This document shows, piece by piece, positions 935 to 60,250 of a stretch of 64,000 bases of DNA (within the stretch, counting starts at the first letter, position 1; each line of letters starts with the position of its first letter). The position numbers were made by a program, and so were the translations under genes. The notes beneath the pieces are model-generated. The model was given only the letters and a program-made list of their open reading frames with translations, was not told where the DNA came from and ran no database searches. This stretch comes from Amphiscolops sp. MND2022 (Eukaryota), in NCBI GenBank assembly GCA_964187785.1, contig OZ076409.1:20772001-20836000 (forward strand), given 5' to 3'.

Positions 935-1797
935 GGAATAATATGAAACGCACTTCTGTAACTAAGATCTAAAGAACTATTATCTAAATGTCATTTTTCG
1001 TAACTAGGATGTAGAGAATGCCTGCGCTCCCGAATCGAAACGAAGGTCTAAATTTTAGACGTTATTCCCGTTTTTAGATGTTATTCCCGATTTGGAAATG
1101 ATTTAAAGTTTAAAACGTGCCTCAGATATGTCCCCATTTCCTCTAGTGTCCCGCGACCCCTTGGGGCCGCTTATATTCCCATCTTGCTCAGCGAGGTCGA
1201 GCAGGAGCAAATACCTAGCGGGAACGGAGATCGCGAAACAATCGTAGTGGGAGCTGGTCTTTGCGACGGTGAGGTCGAGCGTGCATACACGTATATGACC
1301 CCACATTATTCCTTAGACGTAATTCCTGTCCTTTTTAGACCTTAGTTACGGTGCATGATTTTTTAGTCGGCACTTTTCTTTAGAAAAGAGTCGACTATAG
1401 TCATGGCTTTTCGTCAGTGTTTTTTTAAGACCACCTGAACTGACCAAAATAGTTTTACAAAAGTTCTACAAAATATTATTGCACCATTTGGCCTAGCGAA
1501 CTGAACCAAAAAGGTTTTTCCTGTTTTCCCGCGTAACATACCATACCGAGCGAGACCAAAGGGTCCCCCCTTTCAGTTTTTTTTCGGCATTGTGAGACTT
1601 TTTTCCAAAAAATTTTTTTCATAAAAGGGTCCCCAACTCACCAATACTTTGACATATTGAAGTCCTTTTGCTATTTTTGAGCCTTAGATATGGCGCCGAC
1701 TTGGGCCGTTCCCGGCTTGTTAGATCTTAGTTCTTCTTTAGATCTCAGTTACGAAATTCATTTAGATCTTAATCCTTAGACCTTAGTTATGGTCCCC
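935..1797. mobile_element. Degenerate fold-back/MITE-like element with subterminal TAACTAAGATCTA / TAGA(T/C)CTTAGTTA repeats, interrupted by a HINE
   Basis: taactaagatcta-type motifs at about 960-1010 and their reverse complements at about 1336-1350 and 1722-1790. Boundaries approximate. Confidence 0.4.
1361..1721 (+). mobile_element. HINE-like family A copy
   Basis: TTTT-AGTCGGCAC...GAGTCGACT at the 5' end; GCGCCGACT + GCCG-ttcc-CGGC hairpin + TTGTT at the 3' end. Confidence 0.75.
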
Positions 1798-1968
1798 ATT
1801 TAGGGTCACCTTTATCAGGCGAGATGCCAGTCATAGCTCTTGAAAGGATCGAAATTGACGACACTTGTTCATACACTGTCAATTCTAATAGTTGAGTTGG
1901 ACGATGAGCTGTTAATTGTAATAATTGGTGCCAGTGATGGACAAAAACTTGTTTTTAAGCTCGAGATA

Positions 1969-2450
1969 ATGTTGAACTTTCTGCCAGAACACATATTGCG
2001 TCAAATATTCAGCTATCTATGTCACTACGAAGATCTTTTCTCAATATCATCTGTTAATCGCAAACTTCGTTGCTTGGCACTCGACTGCATTGAAAATGTT
2101 GCATTCAATGTTGGAGATGTTCCCGCTGGTGGCAAGGATGTCGTGGAGCTATTGCGCTTCATTTTCTTTCGTTTCCCCAGAACTCGAAGATTGTATCTTT
2201 ATATTATTGGCTCTTATCGGCCCTTTTTGTGTTCTACTGGAGATTTTGTTAGTGAACAAGTTGTTTATCTGAAATTGGGAGGTTTTCGAACGAACACATA
2301 CATTTTCAACATTATCCGCCAACTTTTTCCCAACTTACTTCAGATTGACCTTGACAATAGTCGTTATGACGCTTCTGACGATGAAATCCATTTTTGTTTC
2401 GAGAAAATGTTCACTTTGAAGCTCCCCGGAAACACAACTCAATATGAAAG
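1969..2450 (+). CDS. F-box/LRR-like protein, exon 1 (N-terminal F-box)
   Basis: ATG at 1969 gives MLNFLPEHILRQIFSYLCHYEDLFSISSVNRKLR, an F-box-like LP.E....IF.YL...DL.....V.R pattern, followed by LRR-like FPRTRRLYL and FPNLLQIDL. Candidate phase-2 donor AG|GTATAC after 2450. Without splicing the ORF stops at 2493. Confidence 0.7.
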
Positions 2451-3865: not shown

Positions 3866-5487
3866 GCTACAAGCTCTTCTACGTAGTTTCGTCCTGTCTC
3901 AGAGGCTGCAGAGCGACACGCCGCCAACAAGCAATCGTAGAGTTATCTATTTGTGCTATAGTATAGTTCACGAGGGAGAGCTGTCATAAATGTGACAATC
4001 CCCCGGGTGGTTCCCACGGAACCATATAATTTCCGACTATCAATGAAATTTGAGATACAATGTCCTAATTCATAAATTACCCTCCACTTGCCGGTTTTCT
4101 GAATTTGTTTTACAGGACCGTTATTGACACTGTAAGGAGGCTCTGCAGCTTGCAGCGTACTGACATCCAAACTGTTTTCACTGACATGCCCTCCATGTAC
4201 TAAGGGCAAAAAATCCCATCTCTCTACACCAAATCCCGGTTTCAATACGCGCGGTCCTTATCAAGTTATTGAAGTAAGAAAAGGAGGGAAGTATGCGGAG
4301 GGACATTATTGTGAAAATTTCCATAGAGTTTACAGCACCAAAAAATGCCCGAAGATATACCCATAAGACTCGAAAAACTTTTACCCATGATCGCAACATC
4401 AAAAATCCTTTTTTTTCTTATCGGGAAAACGTCCCACAATGCCGAAAACTTCAAAAAAGACCCTTCAAGTTTGCAAAACGAGCCAAAAAAGTGAAGGGGA
4501 TAGGGTGGTGCCCTTGGACCAAATAAATTTATTTGAAGACATAACAGAAAACTTAAATGAAAAGGTTGCAAAAAATTTAAAATCGCTTTGATAAGTCGCA
4601 TAGATCAGTCCCTGAAAAAAAAACAGCTGACTCTCTGTGCTCGCCAAGCTGTTGGTCCTTGCTGAATTCAAAACTTTTCAAGAGAACCCTACAGTAAATG
4701 GAACTTTTTCGAAAAAAATCAGTGTCGAAAAACTCCAAAGTGTGGAGCCTTTGGTCTTTCCTCTACTTTTGGGTTCTGGTTCAGTGCGGCACTCGAACCC
4801 AGTTACCCAGGCAGAAATTGGAGAACAAAATCCCGTTCTGAAACTTAAGATTTTTTGTTTGAGAATATGGAAAATAAAGTCGCCAACAATTGTCTCCAGT
4901 AGTTGTTTTCGCTATTATCGCACATAATCCATGTGATTCAAATTCCCATTACTTGTATTTGAATGCCATGCAATCGAATGCTCAGCAATTGATTGATTGT
5001 TATCGGAGTGAAAGGAAAATCTCACCGGGTATTGTTCATCCTCAGAAATGTCACATAAGAATCCCCCTTTTTTTGATTTTGACAGCGAATTTTTTCGGAA
5101 CCTTCATTTCAACGAAGTGTTTTTCTGATTTTTTTTTCACTGAGAAGCATTTTTAAGCGCAAAGGTTTCAGTCTTGAGACATTTCATGAAATTAGCCATT
5201 TAGTGTTTTTGTAAATTGGAATAAAGCCTTTTCAAGCCTTCAGAGCTTCCCTTTTAATCTTTTCCACTCTGTGAAACTGAGAATTATTGAAAAACAGTTC
5301 CCTAATTCGTCGAAGTACTGTGCACATTTGAGCTTGGGGTGCCGACATCTTGTAGAGATAGTGCTCAATGGTACATACTATTGTTAGTCGGCGCTTTTTG
5401 ACAAAAACTGTCCGACTGATACAGTGGCTAGTTTTTTTTCGTCAGACCACAGAGCTCAGTATGTACCACTTTTTGGCGTAGAGGTTA

Positions 5488-5607
5488 ATCGGTTTAATGA
5501 GAAATTTTCGTAAATTTTGCGCTATTTCCAAACTTTTATCCGAACTATAGTTCGGATAAAAGTTTGGAAATAGCGCAAAATTTACGAAAATTTCTCATTA
5601 AACCGAT
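5488..5607. repeat. Perfect 120-bp palindrome without spacer
   Basis: atcggtttaatgag...ccgaacta|tagttcgg...ctcattaaaccgat, symmetric about 5547/5548. Confidence 0.95.
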
Positions 5608-5852
5608 GTCAATGTGTAGTGGAAAAAAGGCTCTACATGAGCTGGACTCTTTATAAAACGGTGAATGCTGTTTCCCGGCCAAAATGTTTTGAAAAACGTT
5701 AAGTTCAAATTCAAGACGGACAGGGTTGTCGAGGTTACAGCATTCGCCCTGGGAAACATTTTTGGGAAACACATTCTTTCATGTAGTTCCCTTTTGTTTT
5801 TTTGGCTCTCCGGGATCGGAAAGTTTCCATTTTACCCATTTCGTTGAGGTTC

Positions 5853-6710
5853 TTTTTTAGTCGGCGCTTTTTACTAGTGAAAGTGCAAGACACTTACAGT
5901 GTCTACCTTTTTCGTCAGGGACGCTGAAATGACCACTTTTAGATTTAGAAGAGGTCCCGCTTTTTGGCCTATCGGTTAACGCAAATTTTCAGTCCTGGTG
6001 AGGGGGTCTGAAGCAGGAACTTTGGGTTCTAGTCCCGCACTAAACCAATTTTTTATGCATACGAAGGAAAATGCTTTTTTCAGCATTATGCGACTTTTTT
6101 TGCCATTAAACCGAAGCTCTATTTCTATTTTTACCAGACATCGGTGTTTTGCGAGCTTAGAGGGCCCTTAAGGTTTTTCGGCACTATGCGACTTGTCGAA
6201 GACATTTTTTGACCAAAAAGTTGAAATGGTTTTCACTCAATTTTTGATTTTCTAGGTCTTCCTATTGAAGAAAACCGTTTTCTGAGTCTTGAGGGTGACC
6301 TCTTTGGTTATATTTTGGACCGGGAAGACTGATGACCACAGTGTTCTTAATAATTGTGGAAAAAACCTACGGTTATATCGGCACTGTGCGACTTTTTCGA
6401 AAAACATTTACGTTGTCAAATGGTGCTCCCTTCACGTTTTGAAAATTTTCGATTGAAAAAAGCGCTTTGCGAACTTGTAGGGTCTCCTTTTAGGTTTTTC
6501 GGCGCTGTCTTTTAGAGAGAAAAAAAACGATTTTTTCAATCATTAGTTTTTAGTTTTTCCAGGGAAAAGCGGTTTTTGAGTGAGTACTTCAGGTATTTTT
6601 TGCACTGTAAATTTGATAAAAATTCACTATAGTGTCCCTTCGCATATTTATAACACTTTACTCTGTTTGAATTTTGTACAGGGCGTCGACTTGGGCCGTT
6701 TCGGCTTGTT
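5853..6710 (+). mobile_element. HINE-like family A copy (diverged, with tRNA-like segment)
   Basis: ttttttagtcggcgc start; gcgtcgacttgggccgtttcggcttgtt end; TGGCCTATCGG ... GGTTCTAGTCC boxes at about 5965-6036. Confidence 0.65.
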
Positions 6711-7892
6711 CTTTTCTGATGTTATCAGTGAAGAAAAAGCGTTCTAAGAACCTAATTTTTGGGCAGTGTTCTTTTTTAAGTTTCAAATTAGGTGAAAGCG
6801 TTATTAGTCGGCGCTTTTAGAGTAAAAGAGGTCGAGTTTTAACGTAACACACAAAACCGGACGAGACTAAAGGTTCCCTCTTTCGATTTTTTCGGCTTTG
6901 AGATTTTTTTCGAAATTTTTTCAATGTCTCTTAAGGGTCCCCTATTTCACATTTTCGACACTTGGAGACTGTTTCATTAATTCTTGTTTTTCGTTTGTCG
7001 TTATTTTTAACGTTATGTCCGAAGTAATTTGTGTTCCACTAAAGAGGAGGCGGAGTTCAGAAAATTTTGCGCTATATCCGACTTGAGGATACATCCGACG
7101 TAAGTTGCGTTCCATTAAAGAGGCGGTGGACGTTCGAAAATATTGCGCTAAATCTGACTTTTTGACGTTATATCCGAACTATATTGCGTTTCGCTAAGGA
7201 GGAAGCGGAGGTTCGAAAATATTGCTACTTCAGAGGGCCTTGTTTAATTTGACATGTTGGAAACATATGCATGAACTAGTTCTCAGATCTGTTGAGGTAT
7301 TAATTTTGGTTTGATGACCTTTTTTGGATATTTCTTGATTTTTGGTTTCTTTTTCTCTGTGGCTGGTAGGTGTGCCACTTTTTCCCAAAGACGTCTTATG
7401 ACAGTATGTCTAAAATTCCACCGTACCACTGCCTCGTTTTTTGTTGAACTCAAATTGATTGTTTCATTTTGAGCATGAGTGCGCCTAAAAGTACGAGTGT
7501 GCTTCATAGACCGGAATTCTCTTGTTCAAGATTTGCATGTATGTGGTCTATATTTGGGCTTGGCAGTCTACTTGAAAAAAAACTTGTTTCCCGGAAAACT
7601 GCTCAAAACTGAAGCATATCTGCAATTTTATAATTTTTAGAAAGTTTTTTATCCTGGTTGGTTGAAATAAAACCTTGGCAGTCGCAAAATGTTATAGCTC
7701 GATGATTTTTGTTTTTTGGTGAAATTTCATTAGATGGTTAAGAATTAAGTTGTACATGTGCTACGTTTGGCCATAAACATCTGTGAGTTGAAAAGTATAC
7801 CTGCAGTGATGTCAGCAGTTAGGACAGTTTTCTGAAAGAAGTTTTTACTGTTGGCCTTGGAGTGTACACGCAAACGCCGTTTCCTGTTTCAG

Positions 7893-9265: not shown

Positions 9266-10172
9266 ATTACACTTGCGATAAGCAAGTGTTATGGGAAAGT
9301 GCGTGTGCTTTTTTTCCGGGCGACAACTCTCTTGTTTCACGCAGCAAGTCGCACAGTTCAACTGTGCGACTTGCTGCGTGAAACAAGAGAGTTGTCGCCC
9401 GGAAAAAAAAGCACACGCACTTTCCCATAACACTTACCCATTACATAAGTTCACGCGTTCGTGGTCTAGTGGTAAGATATTTGCTTTTCAACCCAGAGGT
9501 TCCGTGTTCGAACCCGTGCGTATGCGCTAATTTTTTTACAAGTATTCCGAAGCAGAATGTTCTCACTTTTTTCGGCACTATGATAGTCCCCCCTTTCGGC
9601 TTTGTGAGACTTTTTTTCGAATATTTTGTAATGTCCCCCAAATGTCCATCCTTCAATTTGTTTGATATTTTGCAACAGAACGAATGTTAAAAATCCCAAA
9701 GGGCCCCCTTTTCCAGATTTTTCGGCACTATGAGACTGTTACAATTTCTCGTTTTTTTTCGAAAATTTTTTAAAGACTCCAAAGGATCCTCGCTTCAATC
9801 TTTTGAAATTTCGCAACAGAATGGATGTTTAAAAATCTCAAAGGCCCCCTTTTCACAGTTTTCGGCATTGTGATATTTTTCAAAAAGAATATATTTTTTC
9901 TCAGGCCCAGCACGCTATATCCGATTTTCGTTTTTTTTAAAGACCGGTGGTTTTTCTATGCGACTTTTTTAAAATTCGTTTTCATCGAAGCCCCCCCCCC
10001 TTAATTTTTACAAGAAACGAAACGTTTTGTGAACGTGAAGGACTCCTCACCGTTTTCGGCACTATGCGACTTACCGGAGACCTTCATCAAAAAAGTTTAC
10101 TTATTTGGTTTTCTTTTGAAAAGTTGAACTTTCTTCGCAAGTGTTTGCGAAGCACGGCTTCGCCTCTGTGTT
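9266..10172 (+). mobile_element. HINE-like family B copy 1 (contains fold-back duplication and tRNA-Glu-like segment)
   Basis: 5' ACACTTGCGA-taa-GCAAGTGT; 3' TCGCAAGTGT + GCGAAGC-acg-GCTTCGC hairpin + ctctgtgTT. Confidence 0.75.
9455..9526 (+). pseudogene. tRNA-Glu(TTC)-derived segment inside family B element
   Basis: A box TGGTCTAGTGG, B box GTTCGAACC, acceptor and D stems recognisable; anticodon and T stems broken. Repeated at 26586-26657 and 59025-59096. Confidence 0.6.
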
Positions 10173-10427
10173 CATACAGCTCTCACACCAGCTAATGACA
10201 GATATTATGGAGTGAGTTTTGATTGTTGCTTAATAAGTCATTTCATGAGGGCTTCGATTACTGCCAAAGTAGTGAATGTATAATTTGCTAGAAACAAATT
10301 AGAAAAAAGTGGCACTGTACCGAAAAAGCGCCGGTCTTGAAACAATTTGGAGTAAATGGATTCGGATTTGAAAAAAAATTATTGGTGGATATGTATTGAG
10401 AAATAATTATTGACATAGTATTAGACA

Positions 10428-11053
10428 AACAAGACGGGAACGTCTAAAGTCGGCGCTATATCTAAGGCTCAAAAAGCTCAGTTTTCTAAATATGCCCAGG
10501 ATGTATTCATGAAAAGCTTTGAAAACACTTTCGAGACACCCAAAGTGTGCCTTTCATGCTCGATATGACTGGAAAATCACTTTTCTCGACTGGAAACAAA
10601 AAAAATTTTGAAATTTTTGAAATTTTTTTTTGAAAAAAATTTTTGAAAAAACTTCGAAAACGTCGCATAGTGCCGAAAAATGAAAAGGGGGACCCTTTGG
10701 GATTCATTAACATATTTTCTGTTGCAAAATATCAAAAAATCCGAAGGGGGGACTCTTTTGAAAAATTGAAAATTTTCGAAAAAAAAATTCGCACAGTGCC
10801 GAAAAAAATTGAAAGGGGGGACCCTTTGGAGTCTTCCGGTTTTGTAGGTTACGTAAAAAAGGTAAAAAACGAAAGGGGGGACCCTTTGCAGTAAGTTTGC
10901 ATTGGTGGAACTTGGCCTGAGTGAACTTATCAGTTTCTGTAAAAAGTGGTACATACGCGATGAGCTCTGTGGTCTGACGAAAAAAAAAGAAAAAAAAACT
11001 AGCCACTGTAATAGTCGGGCTTTTTTCCTTAAAGGAAAATGCGCCGACTAAAA
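10428..11053 (-). mobile_element. HINE-like family A copy, apparently inserted into an older family A copy (about 10300-11423)
   Basis: aacaagacgggaacgtctaaagtcggcgc ... gcgccgactaaaa. The flanks on either side match contiguous internal sequence of the 29272-30000 copy in reverse. Confidence 0.75.
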
Positions 11054-11852
11054 ATGAGAATTTTGAACAGTCTCATAGTGCTGAAAAAATCTGAAAGGGA
11101 TCTTTTAAGATCCATTCTGTTGCAAACTTAAAAAATTGAAGGGGCCCTTTGGGGACATTAAAAAGGTTTCGAAAAAAGTCTCACAAAGCCGAAAAAGGGG
11201 TAGTCTCATAGTTCTGAAAAAAGTAGAAAGGGGGAGGACCTTTGGCTTTGTAATTGTTTTGTATTGCATGTTATTTGGTTTGGATGCGTGAAAAATCAAG
11301 TAAGTACTAAGTACTTACGATAAAAGTGCTTAGTGCACAAAAAGTAGACCGATCGCATTGAACTGACGAAAAAACTAGCCACTGTAAGAGTCGTGCTTTT
11401 TCTTCGAAAACGCTGGCTAAAAACGAAAAGGTTTTTTGTATGACTCGGCCTTCCTCCTACTGGGGTTTTTAACGCCACTCCAAATCAGCCTTTAGAAATT
11501 TTGAACTGACACCCAAAGGTATTGGCCGCATGACGCCAGCTTTATTATCATTCTAACCTCTTGTGGGCTGGAGATCATTTTCAGGCTTTATTTTTTTTAC
11601 TGAAAAGGCATTTGATTCTCGTTGCATCGTGCAACCCAGTCTTGACGTTAATGGGCTTATTAATTAGTTCATACTAAGTTTTTGGCTTCAGTGCGTGTTC
11701 CAAAATTTTTCACCATAAATTGAATTCATTGATGGAACAAATTTGCCTAATTTGCAGATAGTTCGCGAATTTTTGGCAATTGAATTTTTGACTACTAACT
11801 TGAATTTACTAACAGTGAATCAATTTCAGAACTGGGCGATGGATGAAGCCAT

Positions 11853-12148: not shown

Positions 12149-12218
12149 GTAGGCAGATCTAGAATAATGTGTTTGATTGAATATAAAGCCTATTTCATGC
12201 AAAGCGGCATGCGGAGAC

Positions 12219-14828: not shown

Positions 14829-15283
14829 ACTAGCCGGACCGAGTCATTGCCATATCTAAGGCTCAAAAATAGCAAAAGGACTTCAAAGTGCCAAAGTATT
14901 CTCTTCTACAGCACTCAATTTTTTTTGAAAAAAGTCTCACAATGCCGAAAAAAACTGAAAAGGAGTTTTTGGGATTTTTCAAGATCCATTCTGTCGCAAA
15001 ACTCCAAAAAAATTGAAGGGGGACCCTTTGGTGGAAAAGAAATTTTCAAAAAAAGTCGCACAATGCCAAAAAACTGGAAGGGGGACTTGCCCCCGGTAAT
15101 GTATGTTACGCGGAAAAAAGGAAAAACTTTTTTGGTTCAGTTTCCTGGGCCAACAGGTTCGATTTAAAATTTTGTAAAACTTTTGGTAGAACGATTTTGG
15201 TCACTTCAGATGTATCTAAAAAACACTGACGAAAAGCCATGGCTATAGTCGACTCTTTTCTTAAGAAAAGCGCCGACTAAAAA
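14829..15283 (-). mobile_element. HINE-like family A copy
   Basis: tatctaaggctcaaaaatagc ... tatagtcgactc...gcgccgactaaaa. The 3' hairpin is partly deleted. Confidence 0.7.
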
Positions 15284-15511: not shown

Positions 15512-16052
15512 TTTTTAGTCGGCGCATTTTAGTAGAAAATGAGCCTGACTATTACAGTGGGTAGTTTTTTTAGACGCGTAAGGTCCACTTTTTTGTTCAT
15601 TTGTTCAACAACGTCAAACCTCAACGACTTCAAACCTCAACAACTCCAACCTCAGAAGCGCGTCCAAAACGAAAAGAAAAAAAAACAAAACAGACGTCTA
15701 GAGCCTCGAAAACACACTAAGGATCCCCCCATAGTCCCACTTTTTTTCGGCACTATGAGACTTTTTGGATTGCACCAAAGGGTCCCCCTTCATTTGTTTC
15801 GATATTTTGCAACACAATGGATGTCAAAAAATCGCAAGGGGTCCCCCCTTTTACATTTTTCGGCACTGTGACACTGTTCAAAAATCTCATTTTGAAAATT
15901 TTTTTGAGAAATTTTTTCATGTCCCCAAAGGGCCCCCCTTCAATTTTTTTTATTTTTTGCAACCAGCTGGAGTTTCACAAAGCCCGAAGGGTCCCCCCTT
16001 TTCAATTTTGAGCCTTAGATATGGCGCCGACTTTGGCCGTTCTCGGCTTGTT
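15512..16052 (+). mobile_element. HINE-like family A copy
   Basis: tttttagtcggcgc ... ggcgccgactttggccgttctcggcttgtt. Confidence 0.75.
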
Positions 16053-16315: not shown

Positions 16316-16676
16316 AACAAGACGAGAACGTCTAAAATCGGCGCTATATCTAAGGCTCAAGAAGCAAAACATTTTTTTGAGAATTTTTTGAAGTTTTGAA
16401 TTTTTTTGGAAAAAGTCGCACAGTGCCGAAAAAAAATCGAAAACGGGGGACCCTTTACCCTTTAGTCTCGTCCGGTTTTGTGGGTTACCTTAAAAAAGTT
16501 TTAAAAAATGAAAGGGGGACGGACCCTTTGCACTAAGTTTGCATTGGCCGGACTTGGCACTTGGCCTTAGTGGTTTCAGGAGTTTCTTTAAAAAGTGGAC
16601 CGATCAGTGTGAGTCTGAAGAAAAAAGTCAGTTATAGTCGGGCATTTCCCTTGAAAGGAAAACGCGCCGACTAAAA
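16316..16676 (-). mobile_element. HINE-like family A copy
   Basis: aacaagacgagaacgtctaaaatcggcgc ... gcgccgactaaaa. Confidence 0.75.
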
Positions 16677-24746: not shown

Positions 24747-25485
24747 AATTGATCTTGATTAAAACGTGTACATTGTACTGACTTGACAGCTCTTGTATAT
24801 GTATTTATTTTTTGTATCACTAAACGGAACAATCATAAATTGCTGATCAAGTGATCTTTTTATTTGTATGCAGCATCATTAGCTACTGTCTGTCTCTCTG
24901 GGAGAAGAATTATCGAAGTGAGTGTATTTTTTAAATTGAATCTCTAACAAGAGTCTTTATGAGCGGCAACAACAATATTTTTAGGATCAAGCGAAACCAT
25001 TCGAAACTCTTACAAAAAGTTCGAAAGATAGTTTTTAAAAGGCACCTTTTGGTTCATAATGACTTTTTTTGGCTAATCTGGCACTTTTTGACTAAATTTG
25101 GCACCTTTCTATAAATACATTTTGAAAGGAATCGAAAGCAGCACGTGTGAAATAATTAGCCTGTTGTTCATTTGATCTGGCTTCGCACGATGAGAGTCTT
25201 CTCTGAAACAGCGCTGTGATTCGTCGTGATGAGGAAGCGGCCTCAATTTTCTTTCAATACGAACGATTATATCAGCTTGAAAAACGTGTTCGTGAAAATA
25301 TGCGTCAAACAGGTTCTTTCAAGAATTTTCCGTTATTCTCAACCACTTCTTTTTAGTCGACCCTTTTTGTGAATGAAATGGTCCGACTCTTACAATGGCA
25401 AGTTTTTTTCCAGACATAACCGCTTTTTGAACAGACTTTGTTCACGCTGCCACTTGGCCCAGTGATCACCGTGTCTTTCTTTATT

Positions 25486-25990
25486 ATTTCTGCTTTAGCA
25501 GGAAAAGTATTGTAACCTCAAACTGTCTACTTTTTTTCAGTACAATTTTTCGTACGATACTGAATAATTCGGCAGTGACTGTAAGCGTGGGAATTAAATT
25601 TCTCAAGCTGCCGACGACACTTCAATTCTAGTGCGATGGAACGAGCGAGTGGTAATTATCCATTCGTATGCTGACGTCATTGAGATGAAGCGAGCGAATG
25701 TTCGTAATTGTGCTTTCGTTGCCCCGAGTTATTGAGATGAAGCGAATGAGAGTTATTATTCGTTCGTTGAGAGCTTCGCCTGCATTCAAATGCGAATGCG
25801 AAACTTCGTCTACGCTTAGTAGTTATATTTTCTTTAGTCCGAGAAGAATTAAAGGCGGTGTAAACTTGTACAGTGATTAATTGTGCGCTAAATAATGATT
25901 AAACAAGAGTGTATTGGTATTCCAGATATGATTCTATTATTAATGAAAGATTAAAGCTGAAATAGTACTGAGCCCCGGAGGGGCCTATTT
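25486..25990 (+). mobile_element. HINE-like family C copy, inserted in a degenerate family A copy (about 25350-26220)
   Basis: 5' ATTTCTGCTTTA-GCAGGAA; 3' TAAAGCTGAAAT + GCCCC-gga-GGGGC hairpin + ctaTTTT. Confidence 0.7.
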
Positions 25991-26488: not shown

Positions 26489-27489
26489 ATTACACTTGCG
26501 ATAAGCAAGTGTTATGGGAAAGTGCGGGTGCTTTTTTTTCCGCGCGACAACTCTCTGATTTCGCGCGGCAACTCGCACGTTTCACGCGTTCGTGGTCTAG
26601 TGGTAAGATGCTTGCTTTTCAACCCAGAGGTTTCGTGTTCGAACCCGTGGGTATGCGCTAATTTTTTTTACAAGTATTCCGAAGCAGAAGGTTCTGACTT
26701 TTTTCGGCACTATGAGACTTTTCGGCTTTGTGAGACTTTTTTTTCGAAATTTTTTAAATGTCCCCAAAGAGTCCTCCTTTCAATTTTTTTGATATTTTGC
26801 AAGAGAACGAATGTTAAAAAATCCCAAAGGGTCCCTTTTTTCAGAATTTTCGGCACTATGAGACTGTTCAAAATTCTAATTTTTTTTTTCAAAAATTTTT
26901 TAGACTCCCTTATTTTTTTCAAAAATTTTTTGTAAATGTCCCCAAAGCGTCCTCCTTTCAATTTTTTGATATCTTGCAACAGAACGAATGTTATAAAATC
27001 CTAAAGCGTCCCTTTTTCACATTTTTCTGCACTATGCGACTTGGCGGAAACTTTTTTCTCAATTTTTAGTTTTAAAAGACCGTTTTTTTAAAGACCGATC
27101 TTTTTTCTTTGCGACTTTTTTAAAATTTGTTTTCACCGAAGCCCCTGCTCAATTTTTACAAGAAACAAAACGTTTTGCGAGAGAACTCCTCAAGGCTTTG
27201 CGACTTACCGGAGACCATCAAAAATGTTTTCGAAAAATTTTGAATTTTTTTTCTATTTTCTGTTTAAGGTTTTCCGTTGAGAAAGAATGGGTTTTTTGCT
27301 GTTTTCAGTTGTGGAAGAATGGTTTTCGAGGCTTACGCGTATCCCTTCGGGTATTTTTTGGCGCTGTAAAATTGTAAAATTGATGAAATTTTAATCTCCT
27401 TTTACCCTTGGTTTTCCGTATGATATTGCTTATTTGGTTTTCTTCAAAAGTTCGCAAGTGTTTGCGAAGCACGGCTTCGCCTCTGTGTT
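26489..27489 (+). mobile_element. HINE-like family B copy 2
   Basis: Same termini as 9266-10172; near-identical by eye to 58928-59963. Confidence 0.8.
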
Positions 27490-39705: not shown

Positions 39706-40174
39706 AACAAGCAGGGACCGGCCCAAGTCGGCGCCATATCTAAGGCTCAAAAATAGCAAAAGGACTTCAGAATTGTCGAAGTATTGGTGAATTGGGGACC
39801 CTTTTATGGAAAAAAATGAAAGTCTCAAAATGCCGACAAGAGGGGAGGACTTTTTGGGATTTTTCAACATCCATTTTGTCGCAAAACTCGAAAAAAATCT
39901 TTCCGAAATGGGGGCCCTTTGCTGGAAAAAAATCGAGAAAAGTCGCACAATGCCGCACAAATTTGAAAGGGGGGACCCTTTAGTCTCGCCCGGTAATGTA
40001 TGTTACGCGGAATGAAAACTCTTTTTGGTTTAGTTCCCTGGGCCAACAGGTGAAATTTGAAATTTGGTAGAACTATTTTGGTCACTTCAGGTGGTCTTAA
40101 AAAATAAAAAAAAAACACTGACGAAAGTCCATGACTATAGTCGACTCTTTTGAGGAAAAGCCCCGACTAAAAAA
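39706..40174 (-). mobile_element. HINE-like family A copy
   Basis: aacaagcagggaccggcccaagtcggcgcc ... tagtcgactc...ccccgactaaaa; close to the reverse complement of 1361-1721. Confidence 0.75.
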
Positions 40175-42486: not shown

Positions 42487-45400
42487 ACGCTTTGATTTTG
42501 GACATTACAATAATTGAAAATTTTTAAAGTTGTTATTTTTGACCGACCTCTAGAAAGCAAAATAAAAAGCCATCTTGCGTATTTTGGGAATTCTTCGAAA
42601 TTCGAACCATTAGCATTTCAGAAGATGGATCTTTATTGCCATGCAGAATTAGGTTTTTGTCGAATTTGTTTTGATGTTTGTTATTATTTCTGCGATAGCA
42701 GGAATATTATTGAAACCTCAAGTTGCCTACTTTTTTTCAGTAAAATTTTTGTCGCGATACTGAATAATTCAGATATTTTGTTCGGGAGTGACTATAAGCG
42801 TGAGAATTAACTTTCTCAAGCTGCCGACGACAATTCAATTTTCGTGCGATGGAACCAGCGAGTGGTAATTATGCATTCGTACGCTGACGTCATTGTGATG
42901 AAGCGAGCGATTGTTCGTAATTATGCTTTCGTACGCCGAGTTAGAGATGAAGCGAATGAGTGTTAATTATTCGTTCGGCGAGAGCTCCGCCTGCATTCAA
43001 AGTCGAATGCGAAACTTCGTTTACGCTTAGCAGATATATTTGTTGGGGACGATTCAAATCGTAGAGTATCCAAAGCGTCGAAAGCATGTTGAAATTGAAT
43101 TAAGTCAACTAATCAATTTCCAGTAAGTTGCTGCAAAAGAGCGAAAGGCATTTCTGTTACGAAAAATACCTAATACTGTATTGAATATAAAATAATGTAT
43201 TGAAGTACTGTACAGTATTGAATTACTGTACTGAATTGAATTTACAAAATACCATTGTTCAATTCACAAGAGCGATCGCCATTTCTGTTACAATATATTG
43301 AATTTACATGAACCACTGGCCAATTCACACATTTCTTTTAACGAAATGACGAGAATTCGACTTTGTTTGACGACACTTTGACAACAATTGGTTCTCACAA
43401 CGATATTAATATCGCTCACCGTGGTTTTCGTGATAAAATTACAAAATAGAAATACAACAAATAGTATTTGAGGTGCTTGAAGAAATGTGGAAGTACTAAG
43501 ATTGTTAATACTTTATTAGCGGAAATGATTAAATTGCCAACTGATCACAGCCATGATGAAGCAATTGAGGAAATTGACCGGTCCACTTTTATTGGCAACG
43601 CAGTTCAAAGTATCAAGGCAGATCCAACACAACGGCTAAAACCTGCTATTTGAGAGAAATTACAATTATAATTTGTCGATTTTTTCTATTCCGACTGATC
43701 TGTCAATAGAAAGCAAATTTCATCAAGCGAGAGCTGGAGAAATGCCACCATTACCAAGGAAAGATGAACTCAAAACACGAATTAAAGGAAGATGGGCACG
43801 GACAATCAATAATCAACGATTTATGTTGAAATACAACCATGAGGAGTTATAATGTTTGTGAGTGATTCATCTCTGGAAACAATTTCAAAATACCAAATTC
43901 TATTGTGTGATGGTACATTCAAATGCTACCCGAGGCCTTTCTATCAATTGTATGTTATATTCGTGATATACATTGGTGTACCAATTCTTCTTGTCTTTAC
44001 ATTTCTGGACGGCAAATCCGCCCGTCACTATTGGATTATGTTTAAAACGTTGAAAAAATTGTGAAACGCTTTGATTTTGGACATTACAATAATTGAAAAT
44101 TTTTAAAGTTGTTATTTTTGACCGACCTCTAGAAAGCAAAATAAAAAGCCATCTTGCGTATTTTGGGAATTCTTCGAAATTCGAACCATTAGCATTTCAG
44201 AAGATGGATCTTTATTGCAATGCAGAATTAGGTTTTTGTCGAATTTGTTTTGATGTTTGTTATTATTTCTGCGATAGCAGGAATATTATTGAAACCTCAA
44301 GTTGCCTACTTTTTTTCAGTAAAATTTTTGTCGCGATACTGAATAATTCAGATATTTTGTTCGGGAGTGACTATAAGCGTGAGAATTAACTTTCTCAAGC
44401 TGCCGACGACAATTCAATTTTCGTGCGATGGAACGAGCGAGTGGTAATTATGCATTCGTACGCTGACGTCATTGTGATGAAGCGAGCGATTGTTCGTAAT
44501 TATGCTTTCGTACGCCGAGTTAGAGATGAAGCGAATGAGTGTTAATTATTCGTTCGGCGAGAGCTCCGCCTGCATTCAAAGTCGAATGCGAAACTTCGTT
44601 TACGCTTAGCAGATATATTTGTTGGGGACGATTCAAATCGTAGAGTATCCAAAGCGTCGAAAGCATGTTGAAATTGAATTAAGTCAACTAATCAATTTCC
44701 AGTAAGTTGCTGCAAAAGAGCGAAAGGCATTTCTGTTACGAAAAATACCTAATACTGTATTGAATATAAAATAATGTATTGAAGTACTGTACAGTATTGA
44801 ATTACTGTACTGAATTGAATTTACAAAATACCATTGTTCAATTCACAAGAGCGATCGCCATTTCTGTTACAATATATTGAATTTACATGAACCACTGGCC
44901 AATTCACACATTTCTTTTAACGAAATGACGAGAATTCGACTTTGTTTGACGACACTTTGACAACAATTGGTTCTCACAACGATATTAATATCGCTCACCG
45001 TGGTTTTCGTGATAAAATTACAAAATAGAAATACAACAAATAGTATTTGAGGTGCTTGAAGAAATGTGGAAGTACTAAGATTGTTAATACTTTATTAGCG
45101 GAAATGATTAAATTGCCAACTGATCACAGCCATGATGAAGCAATTGAGGAAATTGACCGGTCCACTTTTATTGGCAACGCAGTTCAAAGTATCAAGGCAG
45201 ATCCAACACAACGGCTAAAACCTGCTATTTGAGAGAAATTACAATTATAATTTGTCGATTTTTTCTATTCCGACTGATCGGTCAATAGAAAGCAAATTTC
45301 ATCAAGCGAGAGCTGGAGAAATGCCACCATTACCAAGGAAAGATGAACTCAAAACACGAATTAAAGGAAGATGGGCACGGACAATCAATAATCAACGATT

Positions 45401-45644
45401 TATGTTGAAATACAACCATGAGGAGTTATAATGTTTGTGAGTGATTCATCTCTGGAAACAATTTCAAAATACCAAATTCTATTGTGTGATGGTACATTCA
45501 AATGCTACCCGAGGCCTTTCTATCAATTGTATGTTATATTCGTGATATACATTGGTGTACCAATTCTTCTTGTCTTTACATTTCTGGACGGCAAATCCGC
45601 CCGTCACTATTGGATTATGTTTAAAACGTTGAAAAAATTGTGAA
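42487..45644 (+). repeat. Direct tandem duplication, 2 x 1579 bp
   Basis: 42487-44065 repeats at 44066-45644; identical ORFs offset by 1579; ACG microhomology at the junction. Confidence 0.95.
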
Positions 45645-46605
45645 ACGAATTACACGCCTCAAATTCAGGCCCACTACCATCGTTACTGATTACGAGACCG
45701 GCATCATCAGTGCTGTTTCATGTGAATTTCCGGCTGCTGATCACCTCTGATGTTATTCGAATTATGTGCAGGCTATATATCGCAAAGTGCAAGAACTGGG
45801 CCTCAGCTGTGATTATACAGTTGACCCTTTCGTTCGGAATATGGTCCGAAAACTGTATGCCGTGCCATTTTTGCCCCCAGATCTCATTGATGAGTGCATT
45901 GTGGAATTCATAGCATCGGAATCGTTCAAAGTTGCAAAGCGGTTATACCCTGCTTTAGTAACCCTGATCAATTGTTTGCACACTCAATGGTATGCAAATC
46001 CCGTGATGCCTTTCAAAATGTGGAATGTGTGAGAGGAGTGACCAAACTCGAACAACAAATATTTGCGAGGGCTGGAATTGCAAGTGGAACAGCGAATTGG
46101 GGAAAAAACTGCCAAATTTTGGGTGGCTATAAGATGCCTAAAACAGGAAGAAATGGAAGTAAGAGTTAACATCATTACTTGGGAAACACTGAATAACAAG
46201 GGCAGGCGCAGTTTTCGTGATAAATGTAGGCAAATTGACAACATAAAAAAGTTTTATGCGAGAAATACCAGAAGTTTGATGGACTACTGGGAAACCATGA
46301 GTCTTGTATGTGGCCGAAAATAATTGGTTTGTTGATTGCAATATGTTGATTTATAATGTTGTTTTTGTTTTGATTTTTGTGATAATTGATTTTTCCACGC
46401 TTTGAATAGTTTTAACTTTTTCGACGCTTTGAATAGCTTAATTTTTTTCGACGCTTTGAATAGCTTATTTTTTTCGATGCTTTGAATAACTTAATTTTTC
46501 TCGACGCTTCAATTAGCTTAATTTTTTTGACGTTTTGTTTAGCCTATTTTTTTCGACGTTTTAATTATTCTACGCTTATATAATACTATAATACGAATAG
46601 TCACC
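44624..46605 (+). mobile_element. Mutator-like (MULE) DNA transposon with decayed FLYWCH+MULE transposase; its 5' half is duplicated at 43045-44065
   Basis: 9-bp TSD ATATTTGTT/ATATTTGCT, degenerate TIRs GGGGACGATTC / GAATAGTCACC. Peptides LRC...HSHD, CDGTFK..PRPFYQLY, TDYE, QAIYRKVQELGL, WNV. About 6 subterminal ttcgacgctttgaatagctta repeats at 46390-46570. Confidence 0.88.
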
Positions 46606-46900
46606 ATATTTGCTTTAGTCCGAGATTTAAAGGCGGTTTAAAGTTTTACAGTGATTAATTGTGCGCTAAATAATGATTAAACAGGAGTGTATTGGTATTC
46701 CAGATATGATTCCATTATTAATGAAAGATTAAAGCGGAGGGGCCTATTTTTCAATTTTCATTTATTCTGTAGATTGTTTCAAAAGGTCCCCCAAATCGTA
46801 CCTTGAATGCTACCTTTATTCCAGTTATTCTTTGGCCTCGGAAATGTTCAGTTCCAACAAATTCCGTTGTCATGTCATTACCCATGTTACATTTTTTCAG

Positions 46901-49555: not shown

Positions 49556-49927
49556 TTTTTAGTCGGCGCCTTTTCGAAAATTTTTAATGTCTCATAAGAG
49601 TCCCCCCTTCGGATTTTTTGATATTTTGCAACAGAAAGTATGTTAATGAATCCCAAAGGGTCCCCCCTTTTCATTTTTCGGCACTATGCGACGTTTTCAA
49701 AGTTTTTTTCAAAAAAAAAATCAAAATTTTTTTTCGAAAAAATTTTCAACTTTTTTTGTTTCCAGTCGGGAAAAGTGATTCTCCAGTCATATCGAGCATG
49801 AAAGGCACACTTTGGGTGTCTCGAAAGTGTTTTCAAAGCTTTTCATGAATACATCCTGGGCACATTTAGAAAACTGCGCTTTTTGAGCCTTAGATATAGC
49901 GCCGACTTTAGACGCTCCCGTCTTGTT
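49556..49927 (+). mobile_element. HINE-like family A copy, internally deleted
   Basis: tttttagtcggcgcc ... gcgccgactttagacgctcccgtcttgtt; near-identical to the reverse complement of 10428-10770. Confidence 0.75.
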
Positions 49928-50032
49928 ATTTATTGCACATGACGAAGTCAATGTGCATTGCAGTCCAGATAAGTAAGTTCTTTTTTCCACTATAGTCAAC
50001 TTCATAATGAGCGCCTTTTAGATAAAAGCCAA

Positions 50033-50105
50033 AACCCCAGAGAGATTCGAACCTGCAGCCTCCCGATTGCACGGCATAAGTGTTGACCACTGTGCCATAG
50101 GGACG
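50033..50105 (-). pseudogene. Degenerate tRNA-like sequence near a family-B-like 3' hairpin (50199-50224)
   Basis: Minus strand TGGCACAGTGG ... GGTTCGAATCT A/B boxes; stems imperfect. Confidence 0.45.
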
Positions 50106-50544
50106 TTATTGAACAAAGTTGAACTGTTGAATATATACGCATGCGATTAAAATAATATATATACGCATATTAAAATAATCGATGTCTTCGTCATGTGTTG
50201 CGAAGCACCGCTTCGCCTCTGTGTGAAATTTCCAATTTCCGTATATATAATTTTGTGATTTTTTGGGGCAATTCTGGGATGGAAAAACATTGCCAATTAG
50301 CGGAAGGGTAAAAAACATTTGTAGCCGAATTTTTGAAATGACGTTAGAAGCACTGTTACAACTTTAACTGTTTTGTTCGTGGCTGTGCAAAAACCAATGA
50401 GATTTGAGAAGCAACGCCCAAACATCCAATGGGGTTTGAGAATCGCTGTCACTTCGCACTGCTTAATCGCATTCTCTAAGGGCATCACTGTAGATGTTTT
50501 CTATTGGTTGTAATTCTCGGATTCTTTTCAGCCCATTTCCTCAG

Positions 50545-51424: not shown

Positions 51425-52203
51425 AACAAGACGCCCGCGGACCAGCGGGATATTTTCCGCCCCAAATCTCTTCGAAAAAGACTACTGGACAACAAATTTG
51501 TTCCTTGTTGACTCTTTTCAACATTCCAATCTACGAAGTCTGTCGAAAATTTGACAAAAATTGCATAAAAAACTTTGAAAATTGGAAAATTTTGGGTTTT
51601 TTGTCATTTTCGGTTTCAATTTGATATATTTTTCATTTAGAAAACAGTCATTATCTCTTCGGAAAAGTATACTGGACAACGAATTCCTGCCATTCCTGTC
51701 ACGTTAAACGTTTTCAACATTCTAATCCACGAAGTCTATCGAAAATTTGACAAAAATTGCATAAAAACGTTAAAAATGAAAAATTTTGGAATTTTTTAAT
51801 CATTTTTTTGGTAATTTTTCTTTTAAAAAACCGCATTTATCTCTTCAGAATACTATTGGACAACGAATTCGTGCCTTGTTGAACGTTTTCAACATTCTAA
51901 TCGACGATGTTTATCGGAAAAATGGCAAAAAATGCATGAAAACTGTGAAAATTGGGAAAGTTTTGAATTTTTGTCATTTTCGGGGTCATTTTTGGGTCAT
52001 TATGGGGTCATTTCCGTCATTCCCAAAAAAGTCCAAAAATCTTTACAAATACATATCGCATGGAACTAAATTTATGTCAGTTGAATTCTGTGAATGTACT
52101 TCTTCATATTACGTAAACAATAATTCTTGGCAAATTTTGTAAAAAAAACCCGTTTGATTTAAATATTTTCCTTTCCCATACGAAATATGGGCGGAAAATA
52201 ATA
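51425..52203 (-). mobile_element. HINE-like family D copy with about 190-bp internal tandem repeats
   Basis: subTIR TATTTTCCGCCC at 51451-51462 and its complement at 52189-52200; partial IR at 52164-52178; hairpin CCCGC-ggacca-GCGGG plus aacaa terminus. Confidence 0.7.
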
Positions 52204-53563: not shown

Positions 53564-53721
53564 CAAACGGACATACTTCCATATTTACAAAACTACGAAC
53601 TTTGCATTCAGCATTTAAAAAATTTGGGTCTTTTGCCACGAAGTTTAAATTCACGCGTTTGTTAATATTTGTAAGCATATCAACTTGTTTTATTCATTCA
53701 ATAATTAATATACTTGTTAAT

Positions 53722-54198
53722 ATTTCTGCTTTAGCAGGAATGTTATTGTAACCTCAAAGTTGGTCCTTTTTTTTTTTTTAGTCGTCAAATTTCGTCCTAC
53801 TGAATAATTCAGATATTTTGTTCGGCAGTGAGTGTAAGCGTGGGAAAGCTGCCGACAACAATTCAATTCTAGTGCGATAGAACGAGCGAGTGGTAATTAT
53901 CCATTCGTATGCTGACGTCATTGAGATGAAGCGAATGAGTGTTAATTATTCGTTCGTTGAGAGCTTCGCCTGCATTCAAATGCGAATGCGAAACTTCGTC
54001 TACGCTTAGTTATATTTTCTTTAGTCCGAGAAGAATTAAAGGCGGTGTAAACTTGTACAGTGATTAATTGTGCTCTAAGTAATGATTAAACAGGAGTGTA
54101 TTGGTATTCCAGATATGATTCTTTTATTAATGATTTTTTGTTTTAAAAAAATAAAGATTAAAGCAGAAATAGTACTGAGCCCCGGAGGGGCCTATTTT
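53722..54198 (+). mobile_element. HINE-like family C copy
   Basis: Perfect 12-bp subTIR ATTTCTGCTTTA (53722) / TAAAGCAGAAAT (54159) plus GCCCC-gga-GGGGC hairpin. Confidence 0.75.
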
Positions 54199-56562: not shown

Positions 56563-57094
56563 AACAAGCAGGGACGGCCCGAATCGGCACCCCGCTCAAG
56601 GTTCAAAATGAGCAAAGAAATTGAAATATTCAAGGAACGACTTCAATATCATACAGGCCAAAAATACTCAAAGGAGTACCCTTGAGACTCATTTTTTTTT
56701 CTGAACAGGAAACAGAAAACCCCAATTTTTTGAAGTTTTTGTCTTATACTGCCGAGAAACTCAAAAGGAGAGCCCGGAGGCACGCTAAATGCTTTTTCCG
56801 AATTGACAACTTCAAAAAACTAAAAATGTTACCATTTGATGAAATTGAAAACTTCGAAAAATAGTCACAGAGCGCCGGAAAAAGCCAGAGGGTTAAAAAA
56901 AATTTGGTCTCGTTTTGCTTTGTGCAAATCAGAAAAATTGACCATCCGGGGATTCGAACCCGTGCACATACACCCTTGCTTTACATCTTTTATCCGCTGC
57001 GCCACTGGAGCAACTAATAGAAATCTGTCAGTTCGCTTGTCTTAAAAAGCCACTGATATAGTTGGCTTTTTCTAACGAAAGCGTCGACTAAAAA
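56563..57094 (-). mobile_element. HINE-like family A copy (diverged) with tRNA-like segment at about 56940-57011
   Basis: aacaagcagggacggcccgaatcggcac ... gcgtcgactaaaa; minus-strand TGGCGCAGCGG and GGTTCGAATCC boxes. Confidence 0.65.
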
Positions 57095-58801
57095 TTAGAA
57101 ACCGACTTTTGCTAATTTTGAGACGTTTCAATTTAAGCATTTTCTTTCCCCCTTGTGAAAAGTCTAGGGGCTAATTGTTTTGTCCCTGGTTAATGTATGC
57201 CGATGATAGTGAAAAATTGTAATAAATTTGTTTTAAAAAGTCAGATTGAAAGATTTTTACCATTTTTCATGCCACGTCTTTGTTAAATAAAGCTCACTTT
57301 TTCATAACTACATATGCTCTATTGTATACAAACTTATTGTATCGATCGAGGAAATTCTGGAAGGTAATTATACTTGGAATCATTTGAGCAGGCCAACTTT
57401 GTACTTTCAAAAATTTTGTTTAGCTTCTCACTGCATTTCTGGCAGTGGTCCCAGTCGATAGCAACTTCTAGATTGATCGGAGTCGAGCTCATTTTTGAGA
57501 TTTTGTTTCATTTTTGAGAAATAGGCAGAAATTACTACTTTTTGACATATTTAGAAACATTGCAAGTGTTTTATTCAAATTCTTCAAAATAGCGCCTAAT
57601 CAAAAGCGTTTGATACGTTGATTCATTTAAATGGAATCCAGCCTAAGCAATTTGGCTCTTCGAATTTTTTTAGACGGACAACTGAAGAAATAGGCTGTGA
57701 CCGTTACCACGCATTCATTTAGCAAAATTGTTTTTTAAATAATGTTTTATTTGATTGCTCCGGTATTAGTGTCCTTGAAAAGTGAACCACCGTTTTTTTG
57801 CTAAAGGCTTGATATTGTTATAAATATAAATATAAATATAAATATAAAATATATTAATAATAATAAATAATAAATATTGTTATAATAAGCCTTTTTTGAG
57901 TTGTTTCTGGGACTTTGTTTCTATTCGCATGTCGATTTTTTACTCCCAAAAAATCCTCCACAGAGACGTTTCAATTTTGACGCTGGCATCTCAACTGACC
58001 TTTTTCCTCCCACTGGTTCTGTCCACTTTCATTGGCTCAACAAAGTATATACTTTTAGTGAATCAGCAACGCCTGCATAGAATACCCTATATGGCAATTT
58101 CAGATTAAAGAGACGAGCTGCTTTTTAATTTTTTTCCTAATTGTGTTTGAACAAAATCAAAACATTCAGCGCTTTTTGAGTTTATAGTAGGCATCAAACC
58201 GAGGATTTCATTGGGTTAATTTGTCACAGGTTGAGTTTGAAGCTGCCAGAAAAAATGGAAGTCTTTTTATTACCTTTTGCCATTCTGAATAAAACACCTC
58301 CTTCGGCATCTCGACATCAGTAAGATTTGAGCCCAAGTGTTTGAAAAAGCTCACTTATTCAATTTCTTTTCTGCTCAATGAGGAGTTCACTTGATTTTCT
58401 TGGTTTCTTGGTATCAAAAAGTCTCACATTTTTGGTTCTCATTTCTGCCATTTTCAGATTATTCAGGAAGTTTGCAAATCTTAATCCTTCGTTGCAACAA
58501 AAACATTGTCATCTCCATATCTATCGTTGACAAGATTGCTCTCAACTGAAACGCCATCTTGCTCTGAGTATTATTTCCTAGCAGAGAGAAAAGATAGAAC
58601 GACACGTTATCACCATCCCAGATGTCTATCGAAATCTCTGCGGGAAATGTAGCTTACTGTAGTCACTGCATGCTGGTCGAAATACTGGTCTTGCTCAAAT
58701 CTCGTTTCTGAGTCAATCAAGTATCTCTCGACCTATTTCCACCACAAAATTTCTTGCATTCGATTGAATGTGATCGTGTAGTCTATAAAGTAGCAGAATC
58801 T

Positions 58802-60250
58802 AGGAAAACTCGTCGAAAACAACTCGTCGAAAATTCTCCGGAAGAAAACTCGTCGCAAAAACAAAATAACCTTATGCAAATATAGTGCCAACTTGGTGAT
58901 CATACTGTTTTATGAAGTTCTAAATTATTACACTTGCGATAAGCAAGTGTTATGGGAAAGTGCGGGTGCTTTTTTTTTCCGCGCGACAACTCTCTGATTT
59001 CACGCGGCAACTCGCACGTTTCACGCGTTCGTGGTCTAGTGGTAAGATGCTTGCCTTTCAACCCAGAGGTTTCGTGTTCGAACCCGTGGGTATGCGCTAA
59101 TTTTTTTACAAGTATTCCGAAGCAGAAGGTTCTGACTTTTTTCGGCACTATGAGACTTTTCGGCTTTGTGAGACTTTTTTTGGCTTTGTTAGACTTTTTT
59201 TCGAAATTTTTTAAATGTCCCCAAAGAGTCCTCCTTTCAATTTTTTGATATTTTGCAAGAGAACGAATGTTAAAAAATCCCAAAGGGTCCTTTTTTTCAG
59301 AATTTTTGGCACTATGAGACTGTTCAAAATTCTAATTTTTTTCAAAAATTTTTTAGACACCCTTATTTTTTTCAAAAATTTTTTAATGTCCCCAAAGCGT
59401 CCTCCTTTCAATTTTTTGATATCTTGCAACAGAACGAATGTTATAAAATCCTAAAGGGTCCCTTTTTCACATTTTTCGGCACTATGCGACTTAGCGGAAA
59501 CTTCAAAAAAATTCGAAAAAATTCGGAAAATTTTTCCTCAATTTTTAGTTTTAAAAGACCGTTTTTTTTAAAGACCGATCTTTTTTCTATGCGACTTTTT
59601 TAAAATTTGTTTTCACCGAAGCCCCTGCTCAATTTTTACAAGAAACGAAACGTTTTGCGAGAGAACTCCTCAAGGCTTTGCGACTTACCGGAGACCATCA
59701 AAAATGTTTTCGAAAAATTTTGAAATTTTTTTTCTTTTTTCTGTTTAAGGTTTTCCGTTGAGAAAGAATGGGTTTTTTTGCTGTTTTCAGTTGGGGAAGA
59801 ATGGTTTTCGAGGCTTACGCGTTTGACTTCGGGTATTTTTTGGCGCTGTAAAATTGATGAAATTTCAATCTCCTTTTACCCTTGGTTTTTCGTATGATAT
59901 TGCTTATTTGGTTTTCTTCAAAAGTTCGCAAGTGTTTGCGAAGCACGGCTTCGCCTCTGTGTTATGAAGTACTGCACTGTAAACTAGAAAAGTGAAACAT
60001 TTAAAGCAATTATATAACTAAAAAAGCTTTCATTATGCGTAAGACTGAAAATTTCAGGCATTAATTAACAAAAATAAATCCCTTATTATCACTGGATAAT
60101 CCGTGCGGGTAATCTGCAATATTCGACGAGTTTGCACTCAATTAATGTTCGACGAGTTAGTTTTCGACCAGTTTTCCGCCCTTTAATTTCGTCAAGTTGT
60201 TTTTGACGAGTTGCATTTGGCGAGTTGTTTCCGACGAGTTTCCGCATACC
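58802..60250. mobile_element. MITE-like element with AACTCGTCGAA / TTCGACGAGTT subterminal repeats, interrupted by family B copy 3
   Basis: Three aactcgtcg repeats at 58807-58856 and several gacgagtt repeats at 60123-60241. Confidence 0.55.
58928..59963 (+). mobile_element. HINE-like family B copy 3
   Basis: Same termini and tRNA-like segment as copies 1 and 2. Confidence 0.8.

Follow-up and report, generated by a model that had tools for sequence, protein, structure and literature searches.

A 64-kb window of the acoel Amphiscolops sp. MND2022 carries probable non-autonomous Helentron-like elements of at least four end types

Locus and Element Census

The window analysed here is a 64-kb stretch of the genome of the acoel Amphiscolops sp. 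MND2022 (contig OZ076409.1, positions 20,772,001 to 20,836,000; 37.6% GC), and all of the copy counts and coverage figures given below refer to it alone. It consists of short genes amid many repeats, with Pfam matches to F-box, 5'-nucleotidase (in at least three pieces, 11847-28713), ABC-D transporter and innexin proteins, as well as to reverse-transcriptase and DDE remnants. The subject of this report is a set of short repeated elements, designated families A to D and type E, which resemble the Helentron-associated interspersed elements (HINEs) and DINE-1. An element of this kind starts with a T-run and a 5' subterminal inverted repeat (subTIR), which pairs with an inverted copy close by; after these come central repeats, a reverse subTIR, a short hairpin and TT.

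The ends of family A were located by profile searches, which matched about 20 5'-end and about 14 3'-end places in the window and none in the reversed window used as a control. The exact 9-mer of A occurred 8 times in forward and 8 times in reverse orientation, and the motifs of B 3 and 3 times, of C 2 and 1 times (exact) and of D once each. After pairing of the ends, the following elements and parts of elements were recognised (coordinates, strand, description):

1363..1721, forward: A1, family A, two-ended
5379..5856, forward: A-type 5' end whose own 3' end is absent, with a perfect 120-bp palindrome (5488-5607) inside and A2 next to it
5857..6710, forward: A2, two-ended, central units decayed
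6799..7225, forward: A-type 5' end with internal repeats, 3' end not found
9267..10172, forward: B1, with subTIR ACACTTGCGA, left block duplicated in inverted orientation, tRNA-like segment, two central units, 3' hairpin and TT
10370..11425, reverse: A-type host element of greater age (5' end at 11423) into which A3 is inserted; A7 is colinear with it and supplies an empty paralogous site
10428..11051, reverse: A3, two-ended, 91% identical to A9, in a T-run of the older A-type element
14833..15280, reverse: A4, 5' end intact, 3' subTIR and hairpin damaged
15515..16052, forward: A5, two-ended, two central units
16316..16674, reverse: A6, two-ended
25484..25989, forward: C1, two-ended, subTIR 12/13, without the A/B central repeat
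26490..27489, forward: B2, two-ended, tRNA-like segment at 26586-26661
29110..30075, forward: C4, decayed copy of family C with A7 inserted in it, 3' end near 30033-30075
29275..30000, forward: A7, two-ended, with an extra A 3' end at about 30370-30425
39706..40170, reverse: A8, two-ended
42684..46748, forward: C2, two-ended, split by a probable Mutator-like element (MULE)-type insertion at 43045-46605, 3' subTIR partly deleted
49559..49927, forward: A9, both subTIRs present, 5' inverted copy lost
49933..50225, forward: E, subTIR with a 14/15 match, 3' hairpin of the B type, tRNA-like segment (50029-50104) in antisense
51425..52202, reverse: D, two-ended, single copy, with its own central repeats of about 180 bp
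53720..54196, forward: C3, two-ended
56563..57091, reverse: A10, divergent copy of an A subfamily, sense tRNA-like segment at 56935-57011
58928..59963, forward: B3, 92% identical to B2, tRNA-like segment at 59025-59100

A previous sequence-only reading of the window had described four families (A to D), and their motifs lie where it placed them, that of D being on the minus strand. Its counts of three B copies, three C copies (C2 being split by an insertion) and one D copy hold, and the C fragment it reported at about 29145 proved to be the 5' half of the decayed C copy interrupted by A7. Its figure of at least 11 two-ended A copies is too high: pairing yields 9-10, namely nine two-ended copies (A1-A3 and A5-A10) and A4 with its damaged 3' end. 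Type E, which combines its own subTIR with a B-type 3' hairpin, comes in addition to those four. The elements had also been described as forming a large part of the intronic DNA. They occupy 20-22% of a predicted 14-kb intron of the 5'-nucleotidase gene, and 16.8% (full copies) or 21.9% (with fragments) of the window; only 6 of 18 full copies lie inside introns that can be inferred.

Several further sequences of similar character were seen. Divergent C-like 5' ends with no recognised 3' end are located at 9184 and 26245. A second GC-rich motif akin to the B/E hairpin occurs at 16081-16099 (forward strand) and 51301-51319 (reverse strand), each time near a HINE 3' end, and possibly represents the end of another family. 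B3 is situated between inverted arrays of a 14-bp unit (58790-60235), probably within a fold-back-type element.

Structure of the Ends

The layout of T-rich start, subTIR, inverted copy, reverse subTIR and hairpin, as originally described, was found in families A-D. The two subTIRs of an element share 8-14 matching bases in 15 of the 17 full copies, the exceptions being A10, in which the pair is decayed, and C2, in which the 3' subTIR is partly deleted. The subTIR of family A (9 bp) is short for a class in which about 11-15 bp is usual, and only three of the nine two-ended A copies have a perfect 9/9 pair; in A9, the 5' inverted copy is gone. In 16 of 17 copies, the reverse subTIR is subterminal, at a distance of 17-26 bp from the 3' end.

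When one representative 5' end each of A, B, C, D and E was examined, fold-back z-scores of -2.4 to -5.8 were obtained, and 7 of 18 A 5' ends had z < -3. In the A 5' region, the sequence of the spacer differs between subfamilies and the fold-back is retained. The stem of the 3' hairpin is 7 bp in B and E, 5-6 bp in C and D, and 4-5 bp in A. Across 12 A ends, the hairpin is paired in 88% of cells, and a double change from C-G to A-T in 4 of the 12 probably represents a single inherited event. Doubled 5' or 3' ends were also observed, together with long fold-back duplications near 5' ends; near-perfect long palindromes occur at 5488-5607, 9283-9435 and 53368-53563, and the first two of these are fold-back duplications near HINE 5' ends.

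Affiliation to Helitron1 (Helitron-like element class 1, HLE1) was rejected, as neither the 5' TC nor the 3' CTRR nor the A/T insertion site of that class is present: the elements start with TT and the subTIR and end with CTTG, CTGTG or CCTA followed by T. A CTAG-like end of A4, considered as a Helitron1 end, is regarded as a decayed A end.

Insertion Sites

TT precedes the 5' end at 24 of 26 junctions and follows the 3' end at 19 of 20, and TTNTT is found at 20 of the 26 5' junctions, compared with a window background of 2%. The best repeat shared by the two flanks is 2-4 bp long in 15 of the 17 full copies, with a mean of 3.5 versus 3.2 for mismatched pairs. Comparison of the flanks and ends of the full copies revealed no constant target site duplication (TSD), no terminal inverted repeat (TIR) at the 3' end and no poly(A) tail, all of them signs that the earlier account had named as contradicting it.

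Two nested insertions were identified: A3 in the older A-type element that is colinear with A7, and A7 in the C copy C4. Both are located in T-runs of the paralogous empty sequence and lack a long duplication. A junction search with the flanks of 17 copies returned one real empty site, that of A3; the remaining rows spanning flank junctions are short low-complexity matches.

Relations Between the Families

Central repeats are built of 143-bp units in A and B, of about 180-bp units in D and of 52-bp units in C. The unit of about 143 bp is common to A and B, with a mean identity of 74.7% between the two families (48 pairs) and 73.5% within A (28 pairs), and in a small tree with weak support, the units of B are not all grouped together. 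E and B have about 40 bp of the 3' end in common, including the hairpin. The claim that the families are unrelated therefore fails, since A and B share a central repeat and B and E a 3' hairpin; the end types (A, B/E, C and D) number at least four, but they are not four unrelated families. In BLAST comparisons, C matches no other family, and D is only weakly similar to the others. A link of D to A or B, suggested by weak low-complexity matches and a shared 10-mer seen by eye, was not accepted. The A/B repeat offers a clear example of a module exchanged between end types.

tRNA-Like Segments

The window was scanned for the A-box and B-box patterns of tRNA-type RNA polymerase III (pol III) promoters. 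Five pairs with a spacing of 43-44 bp were found, against 0.1 expected from 30 shuffles, and all five lie inside HINE-type elements (B1, B2, B3, A10 and E). A looser scan added two poor pairs elsewhere in the window. The best described segment is that of B1:

9455..9530, forward: the B1 segment, with its A box at 9462-9472, its B box at 9505-9515 and a T-run next to it; scored at 27.8 bits by the tRNA model of Rfam

The Rfam tRNA model gave 21-28 bits for the three B segments, under its gathering score of 29. ARAGORN predicted no tRNA in the window, Rfam at gathering score matched nothing there, and the tRNA fold of the segments is not significant. In family B, the segment belongs to the conserved left block, about 100 bp from the start in B2 and B3 and 190 bp in B1, and a T-run follows directly. 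Its conservation (93-95% for B1 against B2/B3) equals that of the terminal block and exceeds that of the central repeats (82%). The three types of segment (B, E and A10) agree with one another at only 40-45 of 76 positions, and are therefore regarded as separate gains. No free copy of the B segment was found outside the elements in the window, and part of the E segment recurs at 17421-17437, outside any defined HINE. The earlier account of the content of the elements has to be completed by these segments in B, E and A10, which it did not include.

Decayed B-box-like or tRNA-like pieces were also noticed at 25987-26050, 17400-17490 and 18120-18200, the first of which follows C1 and may belong to an A-type element starting at 25350. 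A possible decayed segment near 17000 was not counted, its score being within the top 3% of random windows. Rfam matches to miRNA and snoRNA models at 5488-5607 reflect only the perfect palindrome there.

The likeliest cause of the tRNA-like segments is the capture of a SINE (short interspersed element) or tRNA piece as a passenger. In bats, Helitrons are documented to have captured retrotransposons and promoters (PMC4224331), in a text whose accessible part has no word match for SINE or tRNA. Likewise, the accessible parts of PMC5139131, PMC8010984, PMC9659126 and PMC10565955 hold nothing on tRNA or SINE capture by Helitrons, and no description of tRNA-like promoters inside Helitrons or Helentrons was found in a literature search that left subscription papers and Repbase/Dfam outside its scope.

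An alternative that we consider unlikely is that the segment is a functional HINE module gained repeatedly, which would act next to the 5' fold-back as a pol III promoter or as a TFIIIC site and would aid copying or resist silencing. The restriction of all five box pairs to HINEs, the presence of three different segments in three element types and the conservation of the B segment, which equals that of the terminal block, would agree with such a role. Conservation equal to that of the flanking block, however, also fits hitch-hiking, and the events number just three. Moreover, E and A10 are single copies, so their segments may be later insertions, and a part of the E segment exists outside the defined HINEs. 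No segment accompanied the spread of C, of D or of most A copies; the lack of a significant tRNA fold and the known capture of retrotransposons and promoters by Helitrons (PMC4224331) likewise argue against a module. It is a speculative and rather improbable extension of the same idea that acoel HINEs repeatedly took up tRNA-type pol III promoters, with pol III or TFIIIC opening or marking the donor for the Rep-helicase, or shielding it from silencing. If true, a rolling-circle DNA element would be using a SINE-type promoter, and pol III promoters would be linked to rolling-circle transposition.

Class Assignment and Proposed Mechanism

Taken together, the elements are best explained as non-autonomous Helitron-like elements of class 2 (HLE2), that is, HINEs of the DINE-1 kind, in an acoel; their ends are of at least four types, and their inner modules are exchangeable. 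We give this reading a probability of about 0.85. The reading frames within the elements gave no match to a known domain in Pfam, in agreement with non-autonomous elements. Ends alone do not separate a strict Helentron, whose RepHel bears an AP endonuclease at its C terminus, from other HLE2, and the assignment is made to the wider class. The identification as HINE or DINE-1 elements, already proposed from the sequence, agrees with all of the structural features compared with the accessible descriptions (PMC4067079, PMC2374699, PMC7492417).

The subTIRs are 9-14 bp long here, compared with 13 bp in HINE/DINE-1 (PMC4067079, PMC2374699), and the GTCY-type microsatellite of those elements was not noticed in the left block. 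In B, both boxes are complete, whereas the accessible part of PMC2374699 describes DINE-1 as having neither a pol III promoter nor tRNA similarity. The closest parallel are the Cg_HINEs of the oyster Crassostrea gigas, of which 11 families, some unrelated in all modules, occur in one genome (PMC7492417). These have subTIRs of 11-12 bp, inverted repeats of 7-12 bp, a 3' palindrome, central repeats of 140-180 bp (143 and about 180 bp here) and mixed modules, much as in the elements of the window. Members of Cg_HINE group 2 combine related flanks with unrelated repeats, whereas A and B combine unrelated flanks with the same repeat; the left flank contains a microsatellite in Cg_HINE and a tRNA-like segment in B (PMC7492417). 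The pearl and DTC84 elements of bivalves are also modular, with subterminal inverted repeats, AA/TT ends and core repeats, but complete pol III A and B boxes, present in B, were not found in them according to the accessible text of PMC3879986. The HLE2 delimited by HELIANO have, as here, short terminal inverted repeats, a 3' stem-loop, insertion between T and T, and tandem alternative left ends; they are defined through the RepHel transposase, whereas the present elements are known from their ends (PMC11417382).

Several HINE families per genome have already been published for the oyster. The present elements are most likely ordinary HINEs in a lineage for which no report was found. Literature searches yielded no study of acoel Helitrons, and six xenacoelomorph names had no match in the supplement of PMC11417382. 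The repeat summaries of Symsagittifera and Praesagittifera name no Helitron class in the accessible texts (PMC9911081, PMC6451197), that of the Praesagittifera genome giving 20.4% as unclassified. The present elements extend the HINE/DINE-1 type to an acoel and, taking up 17-22% of a gene-bearing window, are relevant to repeat annotation, in which family B could be classed as a SINE by automated tools.

With regard to mechanism, no Rep-helicase partner was found in the window, so that rolling-circle movement is inferred, not observed. Based on the literature, the Rep(HUH)-helicase of an autonomous Helentron elsewhere would recognise the ends in trans, one strand would be displaced, single-strand transfer would stop at the 3' hairpin, and the copy would be joined at a TT site with no real duplication. 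Because only the ends would matter, the middle of the element would be free, so that the repeat of about 143 bp could be passed between A and B, and B may have amplified, as a passenger, a piece of tRNA or SINE origin acquired in a single capture.

A number of results weigh against this interpretation. Among the 272 stop-to-stop open reading frames (ORFs) of at least 62 aa that were compared with Pfam, a set that shorter or broken remnants would escape, none matched Helitron, PIF1 or DUF6570. The exact 3' motif of A was absent from both metagenome and viral contigs; the exact B/E hairpin was absent from metagenome contigs and occurred twice in viral contigs, where both matches, lacking subTIR, terminal sequence and TT, were put down to chance. 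In A and D, the 3' hairpin is short, with a stability no greater than that of shuffled sequences (z +0.2 to -1.7), and a de novo end detector tuned on these same elements missed A and C and returned one false pair. The T counts at the junctions are partly circular for A, because the seeds and the 3' anchor contained Ts, and for D, because the anchor lies inside the subTIR. The flank repeats of A2 and A10 reach 7 and 8 bp, although they are T-rich (P of about 0.025 versus mismatched pairs, uncorrected). Finally, both empty sites are too diverged for Ts that belong to the element to be told from a TT duplication of 2 bp.

The last point leaves room for an older view of DINE-1, pearl and DTC84, according to which such elements are cut-and-paste MITEs (miniature inverted-repeat transposable elements) mobilised by a DDE transposase with a 2-bp TT/AA target duplication. 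A net TT on both sides is indistinguishable here from a TT duplication, an ambiguity also reported by Yang and Barbash (PMC2374699), and DDE transposase remnants are present in the window. We nevertheless regard it as very unlikely. Terminal inverted repeats are not found at both extreme ends, and a 3' repeat lying 17-26 bp inside the end and followed by a conserved hairpin is unusual for a MITE (PMC2374699). DINE-1-type elements have been tied to Helentron partners with 95-98% identity (PMC4067079). In addition, the TIR-type elements of the window have terminal repeats and different flanks, TA in the pogo-like element and an 8/9 bp duplication in the probable MULE.

Hardly any credence is given to the view that B, E and A10 represent SINEs, or retroposons resembling them, with incidental terminal repeats, for although the complete A and B boxes have tRNA spacing and all three B copies match the Rfam tRNA model below its gathering score, the tRNA-like part is internal in B and antisense in E instead of forming a 5' head, the T-run right after the B segment would end a pol III transcript, the segment has no free copy in the window, and the three B copies have identical precise ends with neither a simple-repeat or poly(A) tail nor a variable TSD.

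Other Genes and Repeats

An intronless F-box ORF and a 332-aa ORF without a Pfam match are found at 1837-2493 and 7810-8808, respectively. The ABC-D (ABCD4-like) gene (22324-24746) is nested on the same strand in the 14-kb intron assigned to the 5'-nucleotidase gene (11847-28713). The nearest named relative of its product is that of Symsagittifera roscoffensis (54%), in line with an acoel host, with three unnamed matches scoring higher; the other named animal and fungal matches show 29-38% identity, with one partial match of 46%.

The insert at 43045-46605 inside C2 has imperfect inverted ends, a flank duplication of 8/9 bp and broken transposase-like frames with a CDGTF motif and no Pfam match, and is presumably a MULE-type DNA transposon. 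A near-perfect tandem duplication of 1579 bp (99.8%; 42487-45647) covers the 5' half of C2 and the start of this insert, and is either recent or an assembly artefact. A Pogo/Tigger-like element with a CENP-B-type helix-turn-helix and a DDE_1 domain, terminal inverted repeats, TA flanks and a broken frame lies at 34684-36422. A further repeat family, TIR-MITE-like in that it seems to have terminal inverted repeats, is represented at 12220-12565, 42250-42510, 50820-51075 and 53160-53238. Broken remnants similar to long interspersed elements, with endonuclease and reverse-transcriptase matches and shared ORF1-like pieces, are located at 33650-34740, 36500-39100 and 61170-64000. At 32400-33470, the remnant of a long terminal repeat retrotransposon (DUF5641) is cut by a 36-copy GTATA microsatellite (33470-33651).

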